The position numbers and the translations under genes were made by a program. 64,000 nt of DNA from the NCBI GenBank assembly GCA_016861085.1, contig BOKR01000001.1, forward strand, positions 991,298 to 1,055,297. The letters are read 5' to 3'. The notes beneath the pieces are model-generated. The model was not told the DNA's origin. It did no database searches and was given only the letters and a program-made list of their open reading frames with translations. The stretch comes from Patescibacteria group bacterium (GTDB lineage Bacteria > Patescibacteriota > Microgenomatia > UBA1400 > PJMF01). Shown here one piece after another: positions 4,374 through 56,438 of the stretch; positions within the stretch are counted from its first letter, which is position 1; each line of letters begins with the position of its first letter.

Positions 4374-6428
4374 CTACAAATTAATCTGATACACAATCGA
4401 CCCACTTGCCACAAAAATTTTTCCTAATGACTCACTCGCTGTAATAGCACTTGCTGCACCAAGTGAAACCGACTTTATTTCCCTAACAAAATCGCCGTTC
4501 TTATTAAATAAAATAATTCTATTATTACTTGGATCCAACACATATAATTTTTCTAAGTTTTCATTTGTGTAGGCATAAATATCAGAAGTGAATGCAACAT
4601 CTAATCCTCTTAAAGTAAGCGTTTCTTCTCTTCCAGAAGTGAATTTTTTGATCTGCCCATCGCTAGTAGTCAACCAAACATCACCATCAATTGACATGGA
4701 CCGTAAATCTTCATATCTAATTCCTGTAGCAGACTTCATCCACCCAACAGGCTCTGAGTACCCATCTTCAGTCTCAGCATATCTATATATATTTCTTTTT
4801 TCTGGATTAACCACATACACAAATCTGTCATAGGCATCAAGTAAAGACGCTGTCTTATTAGAATCACCAGCTTCTCTTACAGTTTCAAGCTCAGTATCTT
4901 CATCAAGATTAATCTTATATTTGTAAACACCGTTACTGATCACAAAAATATACTCACCTTGCATAACTGCGCCACTAAATTCAGAGCGATCAGAGAAGTT
5001 GCGAATCCGTACTTTTTTTGTATCCGAATCAAGCAACAATACTTGTTTCATTTCTTTGTCATACACAATGATTGAATTGTTCTGCATGTCAATGCCTGTT
5101 GCAATAAAATCAGATTTAGCTAAACGCAGGTCATAAAAGGTTTCCAGCTCTTGCAGTTCTTCTCTTCCAGAAATTGATTCTAAATACAATGTCAACGCCT
5201 CTTTTTCCTTGGCCAGCAGCTGCTTTGAGCTGCTTTGTTCATTTTCTTTTTCTAAGTTGGAAATCTGTTCAAGAGCGGATGCAATAGTTTGTCGAGCCAC
5301 AATTGGATCAGTGACAACCTGTTCCTTTGCCAGACTTACCGATGACTGAATAGGCACCAGCAATGATTGAATACGTTGTTCCTCTTTATTTCTTTGGTAC
5401 GAAAATACTCCAATAAGACCTAATGCAACCAGAGTTACTACAGCAGCAACTAATAACTTCCATAAACCTTTTCTAGGACGACTTACATCTGAGACGTAAA
5501 CAGTTCTCTTATTAAATAGAGACTGCATCCCTTCACGCCTAACCTGTGAAACTGCATCTGCTACTCGTTTAAAATCAATTTGCCTCATTTTGAGCCAGAT
5601 TTGCAACAATAATTTTTTCAATAAACGCAGCAGCCACTTAAAAAAAGGCACACTTTTGTCCTTGATTACCTCAAACCAGTGTTTTCCAAGATCAGCAGCT
5701 TTATTCACTGACTCTGGAACCTGGATTTTATCAACTTCCAAGCTAACCTGTGCAAGATCAACTTCAGTAGCATCACTTAAAACTTCTTCAACTAAATCTT
5801 CTTCTGAAACTTCAAGGAAAGGAGCACTTTCTTCTTTAGTTTCTGCTACGACTTCATTTTTGTCTTCATCTTTATTCACAAACACCAACGCGGAAAGAGA
5901 TGAATCATCTTGGGCGTGCAGCCCAGGCACTACAGAAGTAATGATTATGTCAACATCATATCCCTGCTGAAACTTAAGTTGAATTTCACTTAAAAATTGA
6001 TCAGCTTGTAGTGTGGTTAAAACGAACACATCATCAGACTCATACGTGCCTTCAACAAGCTTAACCTCATACTCACTTGAGAGAATCTTGCCTGATTTTT
6101 CTCCTCTTTTGAGAAAAATTGTTCCGCCATAGGTTGCAAAAATACTCTTGCTTCTACCTAAAACAGCACAAGCAAAATACATTTTGCACTCATTGGCATG
6201 GGCATACGAAACCAGCTGCTGCAAAAACTCATGCAATTGCTCAGCATCATAAAAATAATAATCGGAAACCTTCTCACTAATATCCCTGCCAACATTACCA
6301 GCATGCTTGCCAGATATAGCGTAAACAACGATCAAACGAACACTAACAGAAACGGTACTTTCTGCCACTTGTGACCAACCGGTAAACTGTGGCAACCCAA
6401 CAACTGGGGTGACCTTCAATCGAAGCAT
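4374..6428 (-). CDS. Membrane protein: N-terminal cytoplasmic domain (possibly degenerate PP2C-like), one TM segment, C-terminal beta-propeller-like repeat domain
   Basis: 684 aa. Hydrophobic segment LWKLLVAAVVTLVALGLIGVF mid-protein. C-terminal repeats of the YV(L/V)D..N.RI type (YVVNPEKRNIY, YVLDPSNNRIILF), resembling NHL/YVTN propeller blades. Confidence 0.55.
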   Translation of the reverse strand: MLRLKVTPVVGLPQFTGWSQVAESTVSVSVRLIVVYAISGKHAGNVGRDISEKVSDYYFYDAEQLHEFLQQLVSYAHANECKMYFACAVLGRSKSIFATYGGTIFLKRGEKSGKILSSEYEVKLVEGTYESDDVFVLTTLQADQFLSEIQLKFQQGYDVDIIITSVVPGLHAQDDSSLSALVFVNKDEDKNEVVAETKEESAPFLEVSEEDLVEEVLSDATEVDLAQVSLEVDKIQVPESVNKAADLGKHWFEVIKDKSVPFFKWLLRLLKKLLLQIWLKMRQIDFKRVADAVSQVRREGMQSLFNKRTVYVSDVSRPRKGLWKLLVAAVVTLVALGLIGVFSYQRNKEEQRIQSLLVPIQSSVSLAKEQVVTDPIVARQTIASALEQISNLEKENEQSSSKQLLAKEKEALTLYLESISGREELQELETFYDLRLAKSDFIATGIDMQNNSIIVYDKEMKQVLLLDSDTKKVRIRNFSDRSEFSGAVMQGEYIFVISNGVYKYKINLDEDTELETVREAGDSNKTASLLDAYDRFVYVVNPEKRNIYRYAETEDGYSEPVGWMKSATGIRYEDLRSMSIDGDVWLTTSDGQIKKFTSGREETLTLRGLDVAFTSDIYAYTNENLEKLYVLDPSNNRIILFNKNGDFVREIKSVSLGAASAITASESLGKIFVASGSIVYQINL

Positions 6429-6463
6429 TACCCAAATTTTACCACATCTTTAATAAAATAAAC

Positions 6464-6727
6464 CTACAGAACTGTAAAGAAATATATCAAAACAAGTATA
6501 GCTGCTATTAAATGAATAAAACCAAGTAATTTAATAATTTGAGATGCAGTTGTTGAAACAGTCTTACTCATCATCGCTATTTGTCTGGTAACTAAAATCG
6601 CAAACAATAAATACAGTACCCCTGCAATAATAAACATCGATTTTACACCAAAAAGGATGACTGCCTCACCATTTGCAAACGGGTCACTAAGCAAGCCAGA
6701 ACCAGAAATAAGAGTGAATAGTTGCAC
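6464..6727 (-). CDS. Small integral membrane protein (2-3 TM)
   Basis: 87 aa, almost entirely hydrophobic helices. Sits tightly between neighbouring same-strand genes. Confidence 0.4.
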   Translation of the reverse strand: MQLFTLISGSGLLSDPFANGEAVILFGVKSMFIIAGVLYLLFAILVTRQIAMMSKTVSTTASQIIKLLGFIHLIAAILVLIYFFTVL

Positions 6728-45189: not shown

Positions 45190-48115
<2,926 letters not shown>

Positions 48116-48587
48116 TAAATTTTAATTTAAAATTTTGCATGTTTGTATAATATTTTTCAATATGATACGGTTTGTAGCTTACTTATTATGTGCTTGAATT
48201 TGCATTCAAGCTCAAGTAATTATTTAATTCTTTAGTTAATCTCAAAATTGAAATTATAAAGATGTACGGCCAACTTAAATGATCAAATCATCTATTTGAC
48301 CTATACATGACAGTTTTCTTCACTTGTTAAAGTTCATCTTATAATTTTAAGTCTCAAAGCTTTCGGATTTATGCGTATAGAGCTTTTAAAAAACGTAGAG
48401 TTCAATATAATCTATACACCACCACTTATTTGACTTTAGCTTAGTTGCTAATTGTTAGTTCCTAGTTAATCCCGGGTGAGAGAAACCAAAGAACTAATAA
48501 CTAACAACCAATGTTATTTTAGTTTTCGCGCCAAAAAAAAAGAGTGATCAAATTATGAAAAGTAGTCTTATCCAGAGAAAAACTCTG

Positions 48588-51351: not shown

Positions 51352-51402
51352 TAAAACAAAAAACCCCCTGATGAATAGAGCGCTTTGCTAGATCATCAAG
51401 GG
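51352..51402 (-). terminator. Rho-independent terminator downstream of the GC-rich beta-CA-like gene
   Basis: Minus strand ccccttgatga…tcatcaggggg hairpin followed by ttttttgtttt. Confidence 0.45.
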
Positions 51403-51567
51403 GTTCCTACTTCTGCTTTGTTTTAGTAATTTCGCCTGGATCCGGAAAAAATAGTTTCCTTTGATCGATTGATCAAAAACACCAAAATATTTTCTCTGGA
51501 CCACAGGCGGAATCACCCGCTTGTGGTTGTAAATTGTGTTACTTACTAAGAAATGCTGGCGACAGTA

Positions 51568-52224
51568 TCAGCGAAAAGTCACAAAATTGATCTTTTCGCC
51601 ACTTTGGGCGACAAGTACTTTTTGGACAATCCGCCGTTGCTGTCTGTCGAAAATTTCGTTCACAGAGACAGAGATAGCATTCTGCATGTAGGTATTTTCC
51701 TTTTTGTCACCGGCCGCACATTTCAGGGCTTCGTACACTTTCTGTCCTTTGAACATGATGTGAGCCACGCCGCCACAGCCACAGTTGTGGCCAGAAGCGA
51801 TAACCTTTTTCACATTCAATTTTTCCAAACAATACTGGGCAATCACCCTCATCGCCTGGAGGCGATTCGGGTCCCCGGACTGACAGATTCCCGCGGCAAC
51901 AAAAACTGGCAGGATGAACAGCCGAGGATTGGTGTCAACCGCCCAGTTGTACAGGGGTCGTGCAAATCGTTGATCCATACACCCAACCAACAGGGCCACT
52001 TCTCTGCCTCCACCGTAATGCTTCAAAAATGCTGGCTCATCAGTCAGAGAAAAATCTGTGAGCGAATACCTCCCCGGCATCCATGGGGCCGCCAAAGGCG
52101 ATACTTTTGGAGTCGCCGAAGCTGAAACCAAATACAAATCTGCGCCAAAGTGCTGACTAGCTTTTAGAACTTTCGGCCAGTCGAGGCCATTTCCAGTTGT
52201 CTTTATCATGTTTTCACCTATCAA
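51568..52224 (-). CDS. Beta-carbonic-anhydrase-like Cys/His-motif protein (GC-rich gene)
   Basis: LLVGCMDQRF (CxDxR dyad) and VIASGHNCGCGGV (H…CGG) occupy the relative positions of the beta-CA zinc ligands. Local GC is clearly higher than the flanks. Confidence 0.4.
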   Translation of the reverse strand: MIGENMIKTTGNGLDWPKVLKASQHFGADLYLVSASATPKVSPLAAPWMPGRYSLTDFSLTDEPAFLKHYGGGREVALLVGCMDQRFARPLYNWAVDTNPRLFILPVFVAAGICQSGDPNRLQAMRVIAQYCLEKLNVKKVIASGHNCGCGGVAHIMFKGQKVYEALKCAAGDKKENTYMQNAISVSVNEIFDRQQRRIVQKVLVAQSGEKINFVTFR

Positions 52225-52477
52225 TTTTTGAGATTGACTTCAAGAAAATGAAGTCTTGCTGATAAAAACTTCCATTTAGCACGTGATTGTTTAAACCACA
52301 AACGTGACAAAACAGAAGGGAGAAAAGAGCCACAAATAGCACCTTTCTTCCTTCTGCTTGAAACGTCTAAATATTAATTTGTTAAAGATCAAAACAGAAT
52401 TATGCGTTATACATAATCAACAATTCCGAAAAGACTATTATAGGATAAAAATGGCAAAATTTCAAGGGGTATCAAAA

Positions 52478-53254
52478 TTATTTTTTTGAAATAGGCAAAT
52501 CGCGTCTATCTCTCTGAATTTTAACGCTGTCTCTTTTATCTAAAGTAAAATGGGCAACAAAAAGCTTTACTTTCTCTCTTAGTTTTTCAGGCACTATCTG
52601 CAAAGCACTACTGTAAACCATGTCTTGCATTGCTTTGATTTCTTTCTGGGAACCTTTTTCGCAATTTAGTTTTTCAGGAACTCCAACTCCATCATTATAA
52701 AAAGCACAGGCTCCACACCTACAATCATGGCCACCTGCATAAATTTGTTTGATTTGCTCTGAGTGATTAGCTAAATATCTGTAAATGGTTGATGATGCAG
52801 TTTTTCTTCCCAGGTTAACTTTTTTTCTTTCTCTTGTTGCCTCATCAACCTGAATAATGCCACCACCGTGAGAAATAAGAATTATTACTGTTCTACTCCC
52901 AAATTTTCTTTTAGCCTCTCTTGCAAGTTTCGTATACGTATCAACAGCCCCACGAGCATCCATGCACATATCAATAACAACAACTGGATTGTCACCAATT
53001 TTTTCTTTAAATTGTGTTTCAGTCATACCTTCTGGCACTGTTGTAACAGTATATTTATGGTCGCGTCCTCGACCTTTTCTTGGTTCATCAAAGATTGAAA
53101 CAGTTGGTTCTCCAGCATGACCCACGATACCGTAATCTCCGGCAAAAACTTTAAATGCTGCAGCAAAATCCTGAAATGAAACTTCTTTCTTTTGCAAAGA
53201 TTCCAAGCCAGCTCTACCACCAGCTTCTGTTATGATTGATCTTTTTAGTCCCAT
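52478..53254 (-). CDS. Beta-carbonic-anhydrase-like Cys/His-motif protein (paralog)
   Basis: VIDMCMDARG and YAGGHDCRCGA motifs. Confidence 0.4.
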   Translation of the reverse strand: MGLKRSIITEAGGRAGLESLQKKEVSFQDFAAAFKVFAGDYGIVGHAGEPTVSIFDEPRKGRGRDHKYTVTTVPEGMTETQFKEKIGDNPVVVIDMCMDARGAVDTYTKLAREAKRKFGSRTVIILISHGGGIIQVDEATRERKKVNLGRKTASSTIYRYLANHSEQIKQIYAGGHDCRCGACAFYNDGVGVPEKLNCEKGSQKEIKAMQDMVYSSALQIVPEKLREKVKLFVAHFTLDKRDSVKIQRDRRDLPISKK

Positions 53255-53310
53255 ATAAACTCACTAATAAGAAGTATAAGAAAGCCAGGATTTTAGCACA
53301 AGTGACAAGT

Positions 53311-54033
53311 CTACTCAAATATAGGCGCGTTTCCGACCATCTCGACAACCGGCTCATTGGTTGAAACATCTACCGTATAGATTGGCTTTCCTTTACTGGA
53401 CCCTAATAACCCTAATGTTGCAGTTGTTTGTTTATCACTTGCCTCTACTAAAGCCTCGTATGAAACACTCTTGCCTTGCGCATTCAAGTACTCTACTAAT
53501 CTCTTGAGTAAATCTAGGTGTCTAACCTTATCGTAAATAAAGAATTGGACATCATTTTCCTGATCCCAAGGTTTAACAGTGTAATCAGTGCTTGTTACTA
53601 CCAAAATTGCTTCTTCTTTATGTTCTCTGTCTAAAATAACCAGCTCCATATTTTCACGATCATTTTGAGCTGACCGTACCAGATCTAATAACTCTTGCAC
53701 ATCTAAACCAGCAACACTATATTTTTCACCTTTACTAATAGCTGCATTGCAATGACCGCAACCAACAATAGTCCCATGGTGACCTTCGTGTGTATCTGTG
53801 TGCCAACAGTATGGATTTCCATCTTTGGTAACAAATTTATATACTAACTCAAATGCCTCTTCAGGGGAAAAACCAAGTTGCAGCAACGCCATTGAAATTC
53901 CCAAATGTGCCCCAGGCATTGCAATCGCTCCGACTGCCTCTTCTCCTCTGTATCCACCATCTACACATTTTGCATGGGTAGAATCTGCAGCTACTCTCAT
54001 TTTTTTTGCGTGGGCAATAATTTTGTCGTTCAT
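53311..54033 (-). CDS. Cys/His-rich hypothetical protein (distantly related third member)
   Basis: KCVDGGYRG, HEGHHGTIVGCGHCNAA motifs. Confidence 0.4.
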   Translation of the reverse strand: MNDKIIAHAKKMRVAADSTHAKCVDGGYRGEEAVGAIAMPGAHLGISMALLQLGFSPEEAFELVYKFVTKDGNPYCWHTDTHEGHHGTIVGCGHCNAAISKGEKYSVAGLDVQELLDLVRSAQNDRENMELVILDREHKEEAILVVTSTDYTVKPWDQENDVQFFIYDKVRHLDLLKRLVEYLNAQGKSVSYEALVEASDKQTTATLGLLGSSKGKPIYTVDVSTNEPVVEMVGNAPIFE

Positions 54034-54125
54034 ATTCTTTCTTTTCTGTCTTATTTTTACTTACTAAAAAACCTCGTCAGGCTGACGATTATAAACTAAA
54101 TCACACTTTTTTGGGAGAATGGTTT

Positions 54126-54740
54126 TTACTTTTCTGAAGATTCAAAACCCATTTTTTTCAAGATTGCAGCATTCTTTGCAGCAACATCTGAACCAAGCAC
54201 GCCTTCAGATTCAAAGACAATTTTTAAGTCGGTGCCACTCACTAAGCTTTTGTAAAATTCAACTTGTGACTTAATTACGCTTTGAGCCAATTTATAATCT
54301 ACTAAGTGAAGCCACTCAGCACTGATTACAAAACAACCTAAATTAAAAGTTTGCTCACCACCAGCTAAAGTAAAACAAATTTTGTTTGCAATATGAACAC
54401 CTCTTGGACGAACCATGTGAGCTTTAATTTCATGTGCAAGTTGTTTTGGATCGGTAAATGGGACAAATCCTGAATAGAGCAATTTCTCTCTATCAGCTAA
54501 AGCTTCAATGTGTTGTTGGGTGCTTGCAGTTACTTGCTCCCAATTGGAAAGTTCTAACTGTTGTTTCATCCAATCACATTCTTCTGAAGCAGCAATTCTA
54601 ATATCAGGGCCCAAGAGTGACTTTAATGCCGTAATAATCTCACTAAAGCCTTCAATTCTAAAACCAGAGCCAGCAAAACCGAGTCTCGTTCCTTCGTTTA
54701 CTTGAACACCTTCGTCTCCACAGGTTATTACGTATGACAT
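54126..54740 (-). CDS. Hypothetical protein
   Basis: 204 aa, same strand as and downstream of the three Cys/His proteins. Confidence 0.4.
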   Translation of the reverse strand: MSYVITCGDEGVQVNEGTRLGFAGSGFRIEGFSEIITALKSLLGPDIRIAASEECDWMKQQLELSNWEQVTASTQQHIEALADREKLLYSGFVPFTDPKQLAHEIKAHMVRPRGVHIANKICFTLAGGEQTFNLGCFVISAEWLHLVDYKLAQSVIKSQVEFYKSLVSGTDLKIVFESEGVLGSDVAAKNAAILKKMGFESSEK

Positions 54741-54860
54741 ATGTCTCCTTTGCCTACTAAAAAATGCTTCATCAGCAATTTTTGGGTAAACTAAGGGTAT
54801 TATACCATAAAACGAGTAAAAAAGCTTGGTTTGTTGCGATGTTTGAGAACAAAAGTATAC

Positions 54861-54890
54861 AAAAAGACCTCGAGTAACCGAGGTCTTTTC
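54861..54890. terminator. Bidirectional rho-independent terminator
   Basis: Perfect hairpin agacctcg-agtaa-cgaggtct flanked by A5 upstream and T4 downstream. Serves the minus-strand rpsA/small-ORF transcript. Confidence 0.55.
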
Positions 54891-54909
54891 AAATTATAAC
54901 TTTTTGTGG

Positions 54910-55086
54910 TTACTCCTCATCAGATTCATCATCTTCTGAGACCATGTTTTGAATTGCTTCTAAGTAATTGTTCATGTCTTGTTCGACTTTTTCCCAATCA
55001 CCATTAGCTTCACGGATCGCGTTGAAGAGTAAATCCATATCAATCAAAAGTTGATCATCGGTTACGATCATTCGTTGTTTTGCCAT
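54910..55086 (-). CDS. Small acidic protein (58 aa), unannotated in the ORF track
   Basis: MAKQRMIVTDDQLLIDMDLLFNAIREANGDWEKVEQDMNNYLEAIQNMVSEDDESDEE. Lies between the rpsA stop and a perfect bidirectional terminator hairpin. Confidence 0.3.
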   Translation of the reverse strand: MAKQRMIVTDDQLLIDMDLLFNAIREANGDWEKVEQDMNNYLEAIQNMVSEDDESDEE

Positions 55087-55114: not shown

Positions 55115-56230
55115 TTATTTGTATCCAAGCGGAACTTCGGTTAAAACGAGACTCAGACTCATACGTCTTTGTTCAGGATCAACACTTTCAACGTTAACAG
55201 TGATGTGGTCGCCTTTTTTAAGGTTGTGACCTTCTTCAAGTTTACTTGAATGAATTAAACCATCAATACCTGTCTCAACGTTGACAAATACACCAAATGG
55301 CTCAACTCTAGAAACAACACCTTCAACTGTTGTGCCAACTTGATATTTATCTGCAATAACTTTCCATGGATCATCACTGAGCTGTTTAATAGAAAGGTTG
55401 AGTTTACCGGTTTTCTCATCAATACCAAGCACTCTTACTTTTAATCTATCACCAACTGCGTGGAACTCTTTTGGATGAGTCACTTTTTCCCATGAAATTT
55501 CTGAAATGTGAACTAAACCTTCAACGTGTCCAACTGAGTTTGAACCTTCGACAGGAACTTCTACAGTCACGAACAAACCAAAGTGCATCACGCCAGAGAC
55601 AACACCTTCATAGATTGCGCCAGTTTTGACACTATCAAGTGCTTCTTGTTTATTAGCAAGTTCTTCTGCCTCAGAAACGTGTCTTTCAGAAAAAATAAGT
55701 CTGTTTTTGTCTTTATCAACTTCAATGACACGAACTTTAATTGTTTCGCCTTTGAGTTTTGAAAACGTACCTACTAAATCTTTACCAAATTGGCTTGAAG
55801 GCACAAAACCTCTGGTTCCGTTGACAGAAACGATTAACCCACCTTTGTTGACTTCTAAGCCTTTGGCTTCAAGAATTGTCTCTTTTTCGTATGCCTCAAT
55901 AAAGTAATCCCATCTTGAGTCTGTTGCAGCTTTTCGTAGTGAAAGCATCACTTGTCCTTGATCATTTTCTGTTGAAACAACAACAGCTTCAATCTTGTCA
56001 CCAACCTTGAGGTCGGTCACATAATCACTAGCAGATTCAAATTCTTTATCAGCAACAATACCTTCAGTTTTAGCACCAATATCGATAGTTAAGGACTTTT
56101 TACTAATTGCGGTAATCGTACCAACAACTGTTTCTCCTTTCCTAGGAATAACCATTTTACTTGTAGCAGAAGCTAAAAGCTCAGCCATGGTTTGTGGCTT
56201 TTTTGTTTTTGTATCTGTGTCAGATGCCAT
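55115..56230 (-). CDS. rpsA: 30S ribosomal protein S1 (short, four S1 domains)
   Basis: Four S1 OB-fold repeats. Start MASDTDTK… is preceded by a strong AAAGGGGAAAT Shine-Dalgarno; the track start at 56275 lies 15 codons upstream. Confidence 0.85.
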   Translation of the reverse strand: MASDTDTKTKKPQTMAELLASATSKMVIPRKGETVVGTITAISKKSLTIDIGAKTEGIVADKEFESASDYVTDLKVGDKIEAVVVSTENDQGQVMLSLRKAATDSRWDYFIEAYEKETILEAKGLEVNKGGLIVSVNGTRGFVPSSQFGKDLVGTFSKLKGETIKVRVIEVDKDKNRLIFSERHVSEAEELANKQEALDSVKTGAIYEGVVSGVMHFGLFVTVEVPVEGSNSVGHVEGLVHISEISWEKVTHPKEFHAVGDRLKVRVLGIDEKTGKLNLSIKQLSDDPWKVIADKYQVGTTVEGVVSRVEPFGVFVNVETGIDGLIHSSKLEEGHNLKKGDHITVNVESVDPEQRRMSLSLVLTEVPLGYK

Positions 56231-56438
56231 AAACGTTATTTCCCCTTTCATGAGAGTGAGGCACAATTGTACCATAATTTCAAAAAAACTCGAGAGTAAA
56301 AATACGAATCAAAGGTTGCTAGGATCAAAGTATCCACGGGATCTTTTGTACCTGCAAAAATTTTTTGACAAAAATTGCTGGGTCAAAAATATGACGAAGT
56401 ATGATACTTTTGATTCTGTAGATAGAGAAAGTACAAAC

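Follow-up and report, generated by a model that had tools for sequence, protein, structure and literature searches.

The locus examined here raises the question of why ultra-small, probably host-dependent bacteria would need CO2/bicarbonate (or COS/CS2) chemistry. The window, a stretch of 64,000 nucleotides from the MAG "Patescibacteria group bacterium BroJett025", an ultra-small bacterium, contains a block of four genes (G4 to G1), three of which carry motifs reminiscent of carbonic anhydrases (CAs). A preliminary description read this block as three beta-class CA paralogues and an unknown fourth gene, transcribed as one operon. The genes and the hairpins between them are as follows.

55115..56275, minus strand: rpsA (ribosomal protein S1), heading a conserved cluster
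54910..55086, minus strand: gene for a 58-aa acidic protein, extremely conserved (68-89% identity), between rpsA and G4
54860..54891, minus strand: intrinsic-terminator-like hairpin, 14-pair stem and T-tail, between the 58-aa gene and G4
54126-54740, minus strand: G4, 204 aa, highly conserved, without functional assignment, not CA-like
54074..54088, minus strand: weaker terminator-like hairpin, 6-pair stem followed by GGTTTTTT, between G4 and G3
53311-54033, minus strand: G3, 240 aa, zeta-class (CDCA1-like) carbonic-anhydrase-fold protein
52478-53254, minus strand: G2, 258 aa, beta-CA superfamily, 'G2-type' subfamily (CMDARGA ... HDCRCGACA)
51568-52224, minus strand: G1, beta-CA superfamily, 'G1-type' short subfamily (CMDQRFA ... 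HNCGCGG)

All four reading frames were confirmed as co-directional at these positions, and the motifs reported for them are present (CMDQR and GHNCGCGG in G1, CMDAR and GHDCRCGA in G2, CVDGGYR and GCGHC in G3). The motifs are more than chance occurrences, because they coincide with the best-conserved alignment positions in two protein families. We consider it probable that the block is a mosaic, in which a housekeeping cluster (rpsA, the 58-aa gene and G4) is joined by three accessory Cys2-His CA-like genes of two structural classes, serving the hydration of CO2 (or COS/CS2), with G1 as a separate unit.

G4, which accompanies the 58-aa gene and rpsA as a core gene, is not CA-like. A genome scan for related loci, anchored on G4, found it at 47-77% identity across 80 species, with the 58-aa gene upstream in 77 of the 80 loci; PGK lies upstream of rpsA in divergent orientation (S1 and PGK carry Pfam labels on the syntenic loci). 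The earlier view of G4 as an unknown stands: searches of Pfam, NCBIfam and the PDB (single sequence, 6- and 34-sequence profiles) returned nothing, nor did hhalign comparison with both CA-like families. We also considered whether G4 might serve the CA-like proteins specifically, as a partner or chaperone, and rejected this because 47 of 69 related species lack a CA-like gene downstream of G4. In roughly a third of the related species the position following G4 is taken by a zeta-like or beta-like gene.

The structure predicted for G3 contains the CDCA repeat fold. With the same fold and the same metal-site motif, G3 is, on this model, a bacterial homologue of the zeta-class enzyme CDCA1 from Thalassiosira weissflogii (PF18484; PDB 3BOB, 3BOH, 3UK8, 7BEZ), to which it is only about 20% identical. 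The site motif comprises C23-V24-D25, H82 and C92-G93. The C-V-D and C-G neighbours are common to both proteins and the His-to-Cys spacing is 10 in both; the first spacing is 59 in G3 and 52 in CDCA1. C23, D25, H78, D80, C92 and H94 are each conserved in all 99 aligned members of the G3 family, and H82 in 98. We propose that the metal is bound by C23, H82 and C92 and that D25 and G93 orient the water. PDB searches that started from G3 itself, from the 99-sequence profile or from the relative P0077 did not reach CDCA1, and the ligand mapping therefore relies on motif order, spacing and the literature, not on residue-level superposition.

CDCA1 consists of three tandem repeats, whereas G3 and all 101 of its relatives, at 240-314 aa, have one domain only. 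The CO2 pocket of CDCA1 is formed by Val474, Phe537, Phe603, Thr627 and Leu631. The candidate pocket residues in G3 are V24, F165, T206 and L210, all invariant or nearly so in the family, with T206 and L210 repeating the i/i+4 spacing of Thr627 and Leu631. The position after C-G, Phe537 in CDCA1, is the invariant His94 in G3. The family has further invariant residues relative to CDCA1 (H78, D80, H138 and E140), which together with His94 may make up a second site or a proton shuttle. In most members the dyad arginine lies at +6 (CVDGGYR), not at +4.

G3 is not matched by any Pfam or NCBIfam model; against PF18484 there is no match at E <= 10, and the gathering threshold of 29.2 bits is not reached. 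Its relatives score 12.8-15.7 bits with this model, weak matches being found in 12 of the 99 members. The E-values on which we rely here are 0.012 and 0.092; a value of 6.7e-05 listed for PF18484 equals that of PF20306 and was set aside as doubtful. Neither Pfam nor NCBIfam currently recognises the family, whose members carry no annotation beyond 'hypothetical'. G3 comes from Patescibacteria, whereas the zeta class is listed from marine diatoms only (review, Table 1; PMC7215798). With the same fold and metal site, the well-conserved G3 family would extend this class to prokaryotes and provide a less complex protein for studying it.

G2 and G1 belong to different subfamilies of one small and divergent beta-CA-superfamily branch, characterised by C-M-D-x-R ... 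H-x3-C-G. They are paralogues, as originally proposed (BLASTP, 27% identity, E = 9e-12). The structure predicted for G2 has the alpha/beta fold of beta-CAs, the Cys/His/Cys order is preserved, and HMMER places C97, H176 and C180 on the beta-CA ligands. G1 aligns with the beta-CA structure 1ddz (E = 9e-5) with ligands matched, provided that a one-residue gap is allowed (HMMER). In common with beta-CAs (PF00484), COS hydrolase and CS2 hydrolase, G1 and G2 have the alpha/beta core, the ligand order, C-x-D-x-R and a glycine after the last cysteine. Conservation across the 76 members (G2 numbering) is near-complete for C97 (76), D99, H176 and C180 (75 each) and G181 (73). The expected conservation of Cys, His and Asp is therefore seen in this family as in that of G3; that of the dyad arginine is not, since it is retained in 46 of the 76 members and replaced by aspartate in 26. 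Of the GH(x)C(x)CG motif first described, the histidine, the second cysteine and the glycine are conserved, but the first cysteine (C178) varies, leaving H-x3-C-G.

The branch nevertheless differs from known beta-CAs, which have H-x2-C-G and lack both the extra N-terminal stretch of some 75 residues conserved here (F37, D40, V44, P58, Y68) and the conserved GGG-x-x-Q, R150 and E205; one third of its members also depart from beta-CAs in having aspartate for the dyad arginine. The His-to-Cys distance is 4 in this family, 24 in LCIB/theta-CA (5B5Y) and 11 in CsoSCA (2FGY), proteins which also have other sizes and domain architectures. With PF00484, G1 scores 23.6 bits (E = 7e-5; gathering threshold 25.7 bits) and G2 has no match at E <= 10; only 6 of the 76 family members match at E <= 0.01. 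An exhaustive profile search of the family yielded 84 matches only and did not reach canonical beta-CAs.

A beta-CA assignment is thus sound for G1 and G2 at the level of a divergent superfamily branch below the PF00484 threshold, and does not extend to G3, which has no sequence similarity to either and shows the zeta-class fold and metal-site motif. The reading of the block as three beta-class paralogues with an unknown gene in a single four-gene operon can draw on the shared orientation, on the relationship of G1 to G2, on the near-threshold score of G1 and on some reviews that place the zeta class within the beta lineage. hhalign also pairs C-V-D with C-M-D and H82 with H176, at a non-significant probability of 4%. 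We regard this reading as very unlikely; its operon also conflicts with the following elements around G1.

52437..52465, minus strand: sigma-70-type G1 promoter, TTGAAA-17 nt-TATAAT, 11/12 consensus positions, the top site in a 6.2-kb scan
52307..52356, minus strand: G1 5' leader hairpin, CAGAAGGAAGAAAGG..loop..CUUUUCUCCCUUCUG then UUUUGU, terminator-like and conserved
51353..51404, minus strand: terminator-like hairpin 3' of G1, ACCCCTTGATGA, 17-nt loop, TTCATCAGGGGG, then TTTTTTGTTTT

The last of these was read directly from the sequence, its loop exceeding the limit of the terminator scan. The spacers in the block, all said to be short, are 92 and 56 nt but also 253 nt. The composition of G1 sets it apart (GC3 0.525; neighbours 0.22-0.32), and its nearest relatives are only 34-38% identical. 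A recent tandem duplication giving G1 and G2 was rejected because the two belong to different subfamilies and differ in GC3. Equivalent promoters precede the G1-type genes at four other loci (L015, L096, L019, L094). The exact leader pattern, at 52314-52351, was matched in none of 100 shuffles; its six distinct instances all lie ahead of G1-type genes and none elsewhere. The RNAalifold consensus has 22 pairs, three of which are changed on both sides (most clearly U-A to C-G), and the fold z-score is -4.5. No Rfam family matches the leader at gathering or permissive thresholds. A metagenome scan with GGAAGAAAG-N10-40-TTTTCTYCCTTCT, a pattern too loose for that collection, gave 108 matches, none ahead of a beta-like gene. 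These features suggest that G1 was separately acquired and may be separately transcribed from its own promoter to its own terminator, with regulation through the attenuator-like leader.

By analogy with the known classes, the CA-like proteins probably hydrate CO2, or COS/CS2, in a zinc-dependent reaction. In G3, C23, H82 and C92 would bind Zn(II) and a water molecule, D25 and the backbone of G93 would orient the metal-bound hydroxide, and the hydroxide would attack CO2 in a pocket of V24, F165, T206 and L210. The same zinc-hydroxide chemistry may operate in G2 and G1 through C97, H176 and C180 with the D99/R101 dyad (G2 numbering). The proteins would most likely interconvert CO2 and bicarbonate in the cytoplasm, or hydrate COS/CS2, which are isoelectronic with CO2. 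By eye, the G3 N-terminus has no obvious signal peptide.

Two other functions were weighed. The proteins could be non-catalytic, retaining a CA-like scaffold for metal binding, metal buffering or CO2/bicarbonate sensing: LCIB-type and degenerate CsoSCA domains, both among the matches, exemplify folds with lost or altered activity, the CA-like genes are accessory and often absent, and the dedicated leader of G1-type genes suggests conditional expression. The ligands, the catalytic Asp (D25 in 99/99, D99 in 75/76) and the Gly after the second Cys are, however, near-invariant, the pattern expected of active enzymes, which counts against this proposal and makes it improbable in our judgement. It is unlikely, too, that they are zinc enzymes for a substrate other than CO2, hydrolysing COS or CS2 or hydrating another small molecule, perhaps with the zeta-like and beta-like proteins acting in sequence. 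No alternative substrate is positively supported, and the core C-x-D ... H ... C-G site serves CO2 in both classes. An obligatory two-step pathway is disfavoured by some genomes in which G4 is followed by one class alone and the approximately 10 kb available contain no zeta-like gene.

We note that the two classes sometimes substitute for each other after G4. Where the zeta-like gene stands in other genomes, some relatives have a beta-like one, which suggests that the two can replace each other in function; two structural CA-like classes compete for one slot in organisms of minimal metabolism. A wider proposal, which we put forward tentatively and think somewhat less likely to be right than wrong, is that the G3 family is an unrecognised prokaryotic clade of active zeta-class CAs. 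In Patescibacteria of the Microgenomates/Pacebacteria type it would have been passed on by vertical descent at a constant position behind rpsA, the 58-aa gene and G4, and in function it and a new H-x3-C beta-CA branch could replace each other. Such a clade would end the 'diatom-only' status of the zeta class and give CDCA a bacterial root. The G1-type paralogue would be under a new, conserved attenuator-like leader RNA responding to a signal linked to inorganic-carbon or metal supply. The divergent H-x3-C beta-like family, with the conserved leader dedicated to it, is likewise uncharacterised and open to direct testing.

The G1 reading frame itself has two candidate starts: TTG gives 218 aa, and ATG at 52209 gives 213 aa with a ribosome-binding site (AGGTGA) ahead. 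From the sequence context the ATG seems the likelier start; the public annotation of G1, at 136 aa only, is truncated.

Four minus-strand ORFs occupy exactly the positions given in the preliminary description:

51568-52224, minus strand: G1
52478-53254, minus strand: G2
53311-54033, minus strand: G3
54126-54740, minus strand: G4

The Cys/His motifs quoted there are real. Alignment with relatives, covering two protein families, places the motif residues in the columns with the highest conservation, thus they are not chance occurrences. This confirms the observation; its interpretation, three β-class carbonic anhydrases (CAs), is partly supported, in that G1, G2 and G3 all appear CA-like but G3 is assigned to the ζ class. 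G1 is a paralogue of G2 (27% identity, E = 9e-12), and sequence similarity of G3 to either was undetectable. The CA-like genes come from two structural classes, and our confidence in their fold and superfamily assignments is high. G4 is unrelated to them.

The ζ-like family in Patescibacteria is the most surprising element here. Around 100 clusters are homologous to G3, all from Patescibacteria-type assemblies and all annotated ‘hypothetical’; a Pfam domain was found in none of them. The AlphaFold2 model of G3, with 99 homologues as input, was very confident (pLDDT 96.8, pTM 0.92). Searching with this model, Foldseek returned only six significant chains, every one a repeat (R1, R2 or R3) of CDCA1 (E 1e-6 to 4e-5, probability 1.00, TM 0.49-0.64). 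A weak sequence-level link is provided by the CDCA family PF18484, which 12 of 99 G3-family members match, all below threshold; the relative P0077 does so with E = 0.012 over profile positions 11-146 of 184. In CDCA1 the metal ligands are Cys473, His525 and Cys535, the metal-bound water hydrogen bonds to Asp475 and Gly536, and the CO2 pocket is formed by Val474, Phe537, Phe603, Thr627 and Leu631 (PMC8217695). In 3BOC numbering the ligands are C41, H93 and C103 (PMC13147460). The candidate site in G3 comprises C23-V24-D25, H82 and C92-G93, each kept in at least 98 of the 99 sequences, and its His-to-Cys spacing of 10 is identical to that of CDCA1. F165, T206 and L210 are plausible equivalents of the pocket residues. 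The two proteins also differ. G3 has a single domain in place of three repeats, an invariant His94 follows C-G where CDCA1 has Phe, and H78, D80, H138 and E140 are further invariant residues unlike CDCA1. The dyad-type Arg of most family members sits at +6 (CVDGGYR), not +4, although 13 of 99 have CVDGR with Arg at +4. On the predicted structure, G3 is a ζ-class (CDCA1-like) homologue and not a β-class one. Reviews assign the ζ class to diatoms (PMC7215798, Table 1), and our literature search for this class and Patescibacteria found no paper connecting them. We note that P0102, a divergent member of the family, has no central GCGHC segment and carries ‘CTGCGHCQAAIDNAEKYEL...’ at its C-terminus instead, which suggests circular permutation or relocation of the metal-ligand segment.

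Against the β-CA family PF00484, the search proposed earlier, G1 gave E = 7e-5 with a score (23.6 bits) below the threshold of 25.7, and G2 gave no match. A phmmer search of the PDB with G1 gave 13 matches, 12 of them β-CAs, in which CMDQR and GH..CGG line up with the zinc ligands and Asp-Arg dyad. β-CAs were also the sole, weak, PDB matches of the G1/G2-family profile; six of 76 family members match PF00484 at E <= 0.01. When 1.84 billion representatives were searched exhaustively with a profile, just 84 proteins came back at E <= 1e-3, and canonical β-CAs were not among them. The family signature is C-M-D-x-(R/D) ... G-G-G-x-x-Q ... R ... H-x3-C-G, with one more residue between His and Cys than in the H-x2-C-G of β-CAs, and, unlike textbook β-CAs, the family has a conserved N-terminal extension. 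G1 and G2 have the dyad Arg, which only 46 of 76 members carry; the first Cys of the ‘HxCxCG’ motif highlighted previously is not conserved across the family. G2 belongs to an ‘HDCRCGACA’ subfamily and G1 to a separate, shorter ‘H-x3-C-G-G’ type, whose closest relatives reach 34-38% identity to G1 at most. Judged from their sequences, G1 and G2 are CA-like members of a small, divergent, distinct and new H-x3-C branch of the β-CA superfamily.

The window lies on a 1.17-Mb contig of the metagenome-assembled CPR genome ‘Patescibacteria group bacterium BroJett025’. In its public annotation G1 is BroJett025_10320, a protein of only 136 aa starting at Met83 (‘MDQRF’), which removes Cys82, an invariant ligand, along with the N-terminal region conserved in the family. 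A start at ATG 52209 is predicted from the family alignment and from an AGGTGA ribosome-binding site. GC at third codon positions (GC3) is 0.525 in G1 and 0.22-0.32 in every neighbour. The excess recurs in related-genome loci L096 (G1-type gene 6001-6648, 0.444 vs 0.15-0.22) and L011 (1026-1628, 0.358 vs 0.234), making three independent genomes with that of the window; G2-type genes do not have it. Possible causes are a constraint on the mRNA and repeated transfer from a pool richer in GC. A 190-aa ORF antisense to G1 (51553-52125, plus strand) is most likely a by-product of the high GC content of G1 and not a gene.

On the reading with the best support, G3, G2 and G1 would be zinc enzymes located in the cytoplasm, each with a Cys2-His site at which a metal-bound hydroxide, held in orientation by the conserved Asp, would hydrate CO2. 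They may also turn over COS or CS2, by analogy, because both folds contain enzymes acting on these. Our confidence that the three are bona fide carbonic anhydrases is only moderate, because scores fall below thresholds, there are differences in His-Cys spacing and in pocket residues, and the function is predicted only.

The spacers are 92 nt (G4-G3), 56 nt (G3-G2) and 253 nt (G2-G1). A strong terminator hairpin lies between G4 and the preceding 58-aa gene, and a weaker terminator-like hairpin between G4 and G3. Further signals flank G1:

52465-52437, minus strand: σ70-like site TTGAAA-17-TATAAT in the G2-G1 spacer, 11/12 positions, the best in the region
52356-52307, minus strand: hairpin and U-run after the G1 promoter
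51404-51353, minus strand: terminator-like hairpin after G1, read from sequence

These predicted hairpins and the internal promoter divide the block, contradicting the earlier proposal of one operon.

G1-type genes share a leader hairpin, (C)AGAAGGAAGAAAG ... CUUUUCUCCCUUCU(G) followed by UUUUGU. Promoter, A/T-rich box, hairpin and UUUUGU are near-identical in sequence at six distinct loci, and the proteins downstream share a mere ~35% identity:

window 52307-52465, minus strand: leader
L015:6500-6720: leader
L019:7370-7530: leader
L011:800-930: leader
L094:330-460: leader
L096:5720-5900: leader

The element is restricted to upstream of G1-type genes. In L096 and L094 a terminator belonging to the preceding gene comes before the leader promoter, so the hairpin lies in a 5′ leader and looks like an attenuator. 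RNAalifold gave 22 pairs, three changed on both sides (most clearly U-A to C-G), and Rfam holds no family for it. The leader may be an attenuator, a riboswitch-like element or, as an alternative, a small RNA.

Every G3-homologue context examined has the order PGK (divergent), rpsA (S1), a ~55-85-aa gene, the G4 homologue and the G3 homologue. A G4-anchored scan of species-representative genomes recovered 80 loci; both G4 and the 58-aa gene show extreme conservation, and they occur as a pair in 77 of these. Among the 69 loci in which at least 1.5 kb lies downstream of G4, 18 have a ζ-like gene there, three a β-like gene only, one both and 47 neither, so that G4 counts among the core genes of the rpsA cluster rather than as a dedicated partner. 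The 58-aa acidic protein (54910-55086, minus strand; 68-89% identity among relatives) and G4 (204 aa; 47-77%, with YVITCGDEG, HMVRP and GGEQT invariant) form a near-universal pair straight after rpsA in this lineage (L014-L093). Neither has a recognisable family or solved relative, and relatives of G4 with known function were undetected; both are likely core genes of unassigned function.

A G2-type gene directly follows G4, with the ζ-like gene absent, in L008/L023, L010 and L046. That two structurally different CA-like families hold the same slot argues that they are functionally equivalent. In four further lineages (L011/L012, L015, L096/L097 and the P0131 contig) a ζ-like gene is followed by a G1-type gene. 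Downstream of G1 lie a coiled-coil protein and an 83-92-aa protein, and the same two follow the ζ-like gene, or ζ-like/G1-type pair, in L004 and L096; G2 and G1 are thus lineage-specific additions. Between G4 and the ζ-like gene, the P0131 contig carries an AbiEii/DUF6922 toxin-antitoxin pair and two small genes, and L096 (4323-4748) a 141-aa hydrophobic, probably membrane, protein. Such insertions fit a permissive integration spot at the tail of the rpsA cluster. The 23S rRNA gene of the window (45199-48120) matches the bacterial model over its full length, without a LAGLIDADG-type insert. In a close relative (L001:7512-12617), the G2 homologue has about 3 kb without a called gene on its downstream side, and two LAGLIDADG homing-endonuclease ORFs come next.
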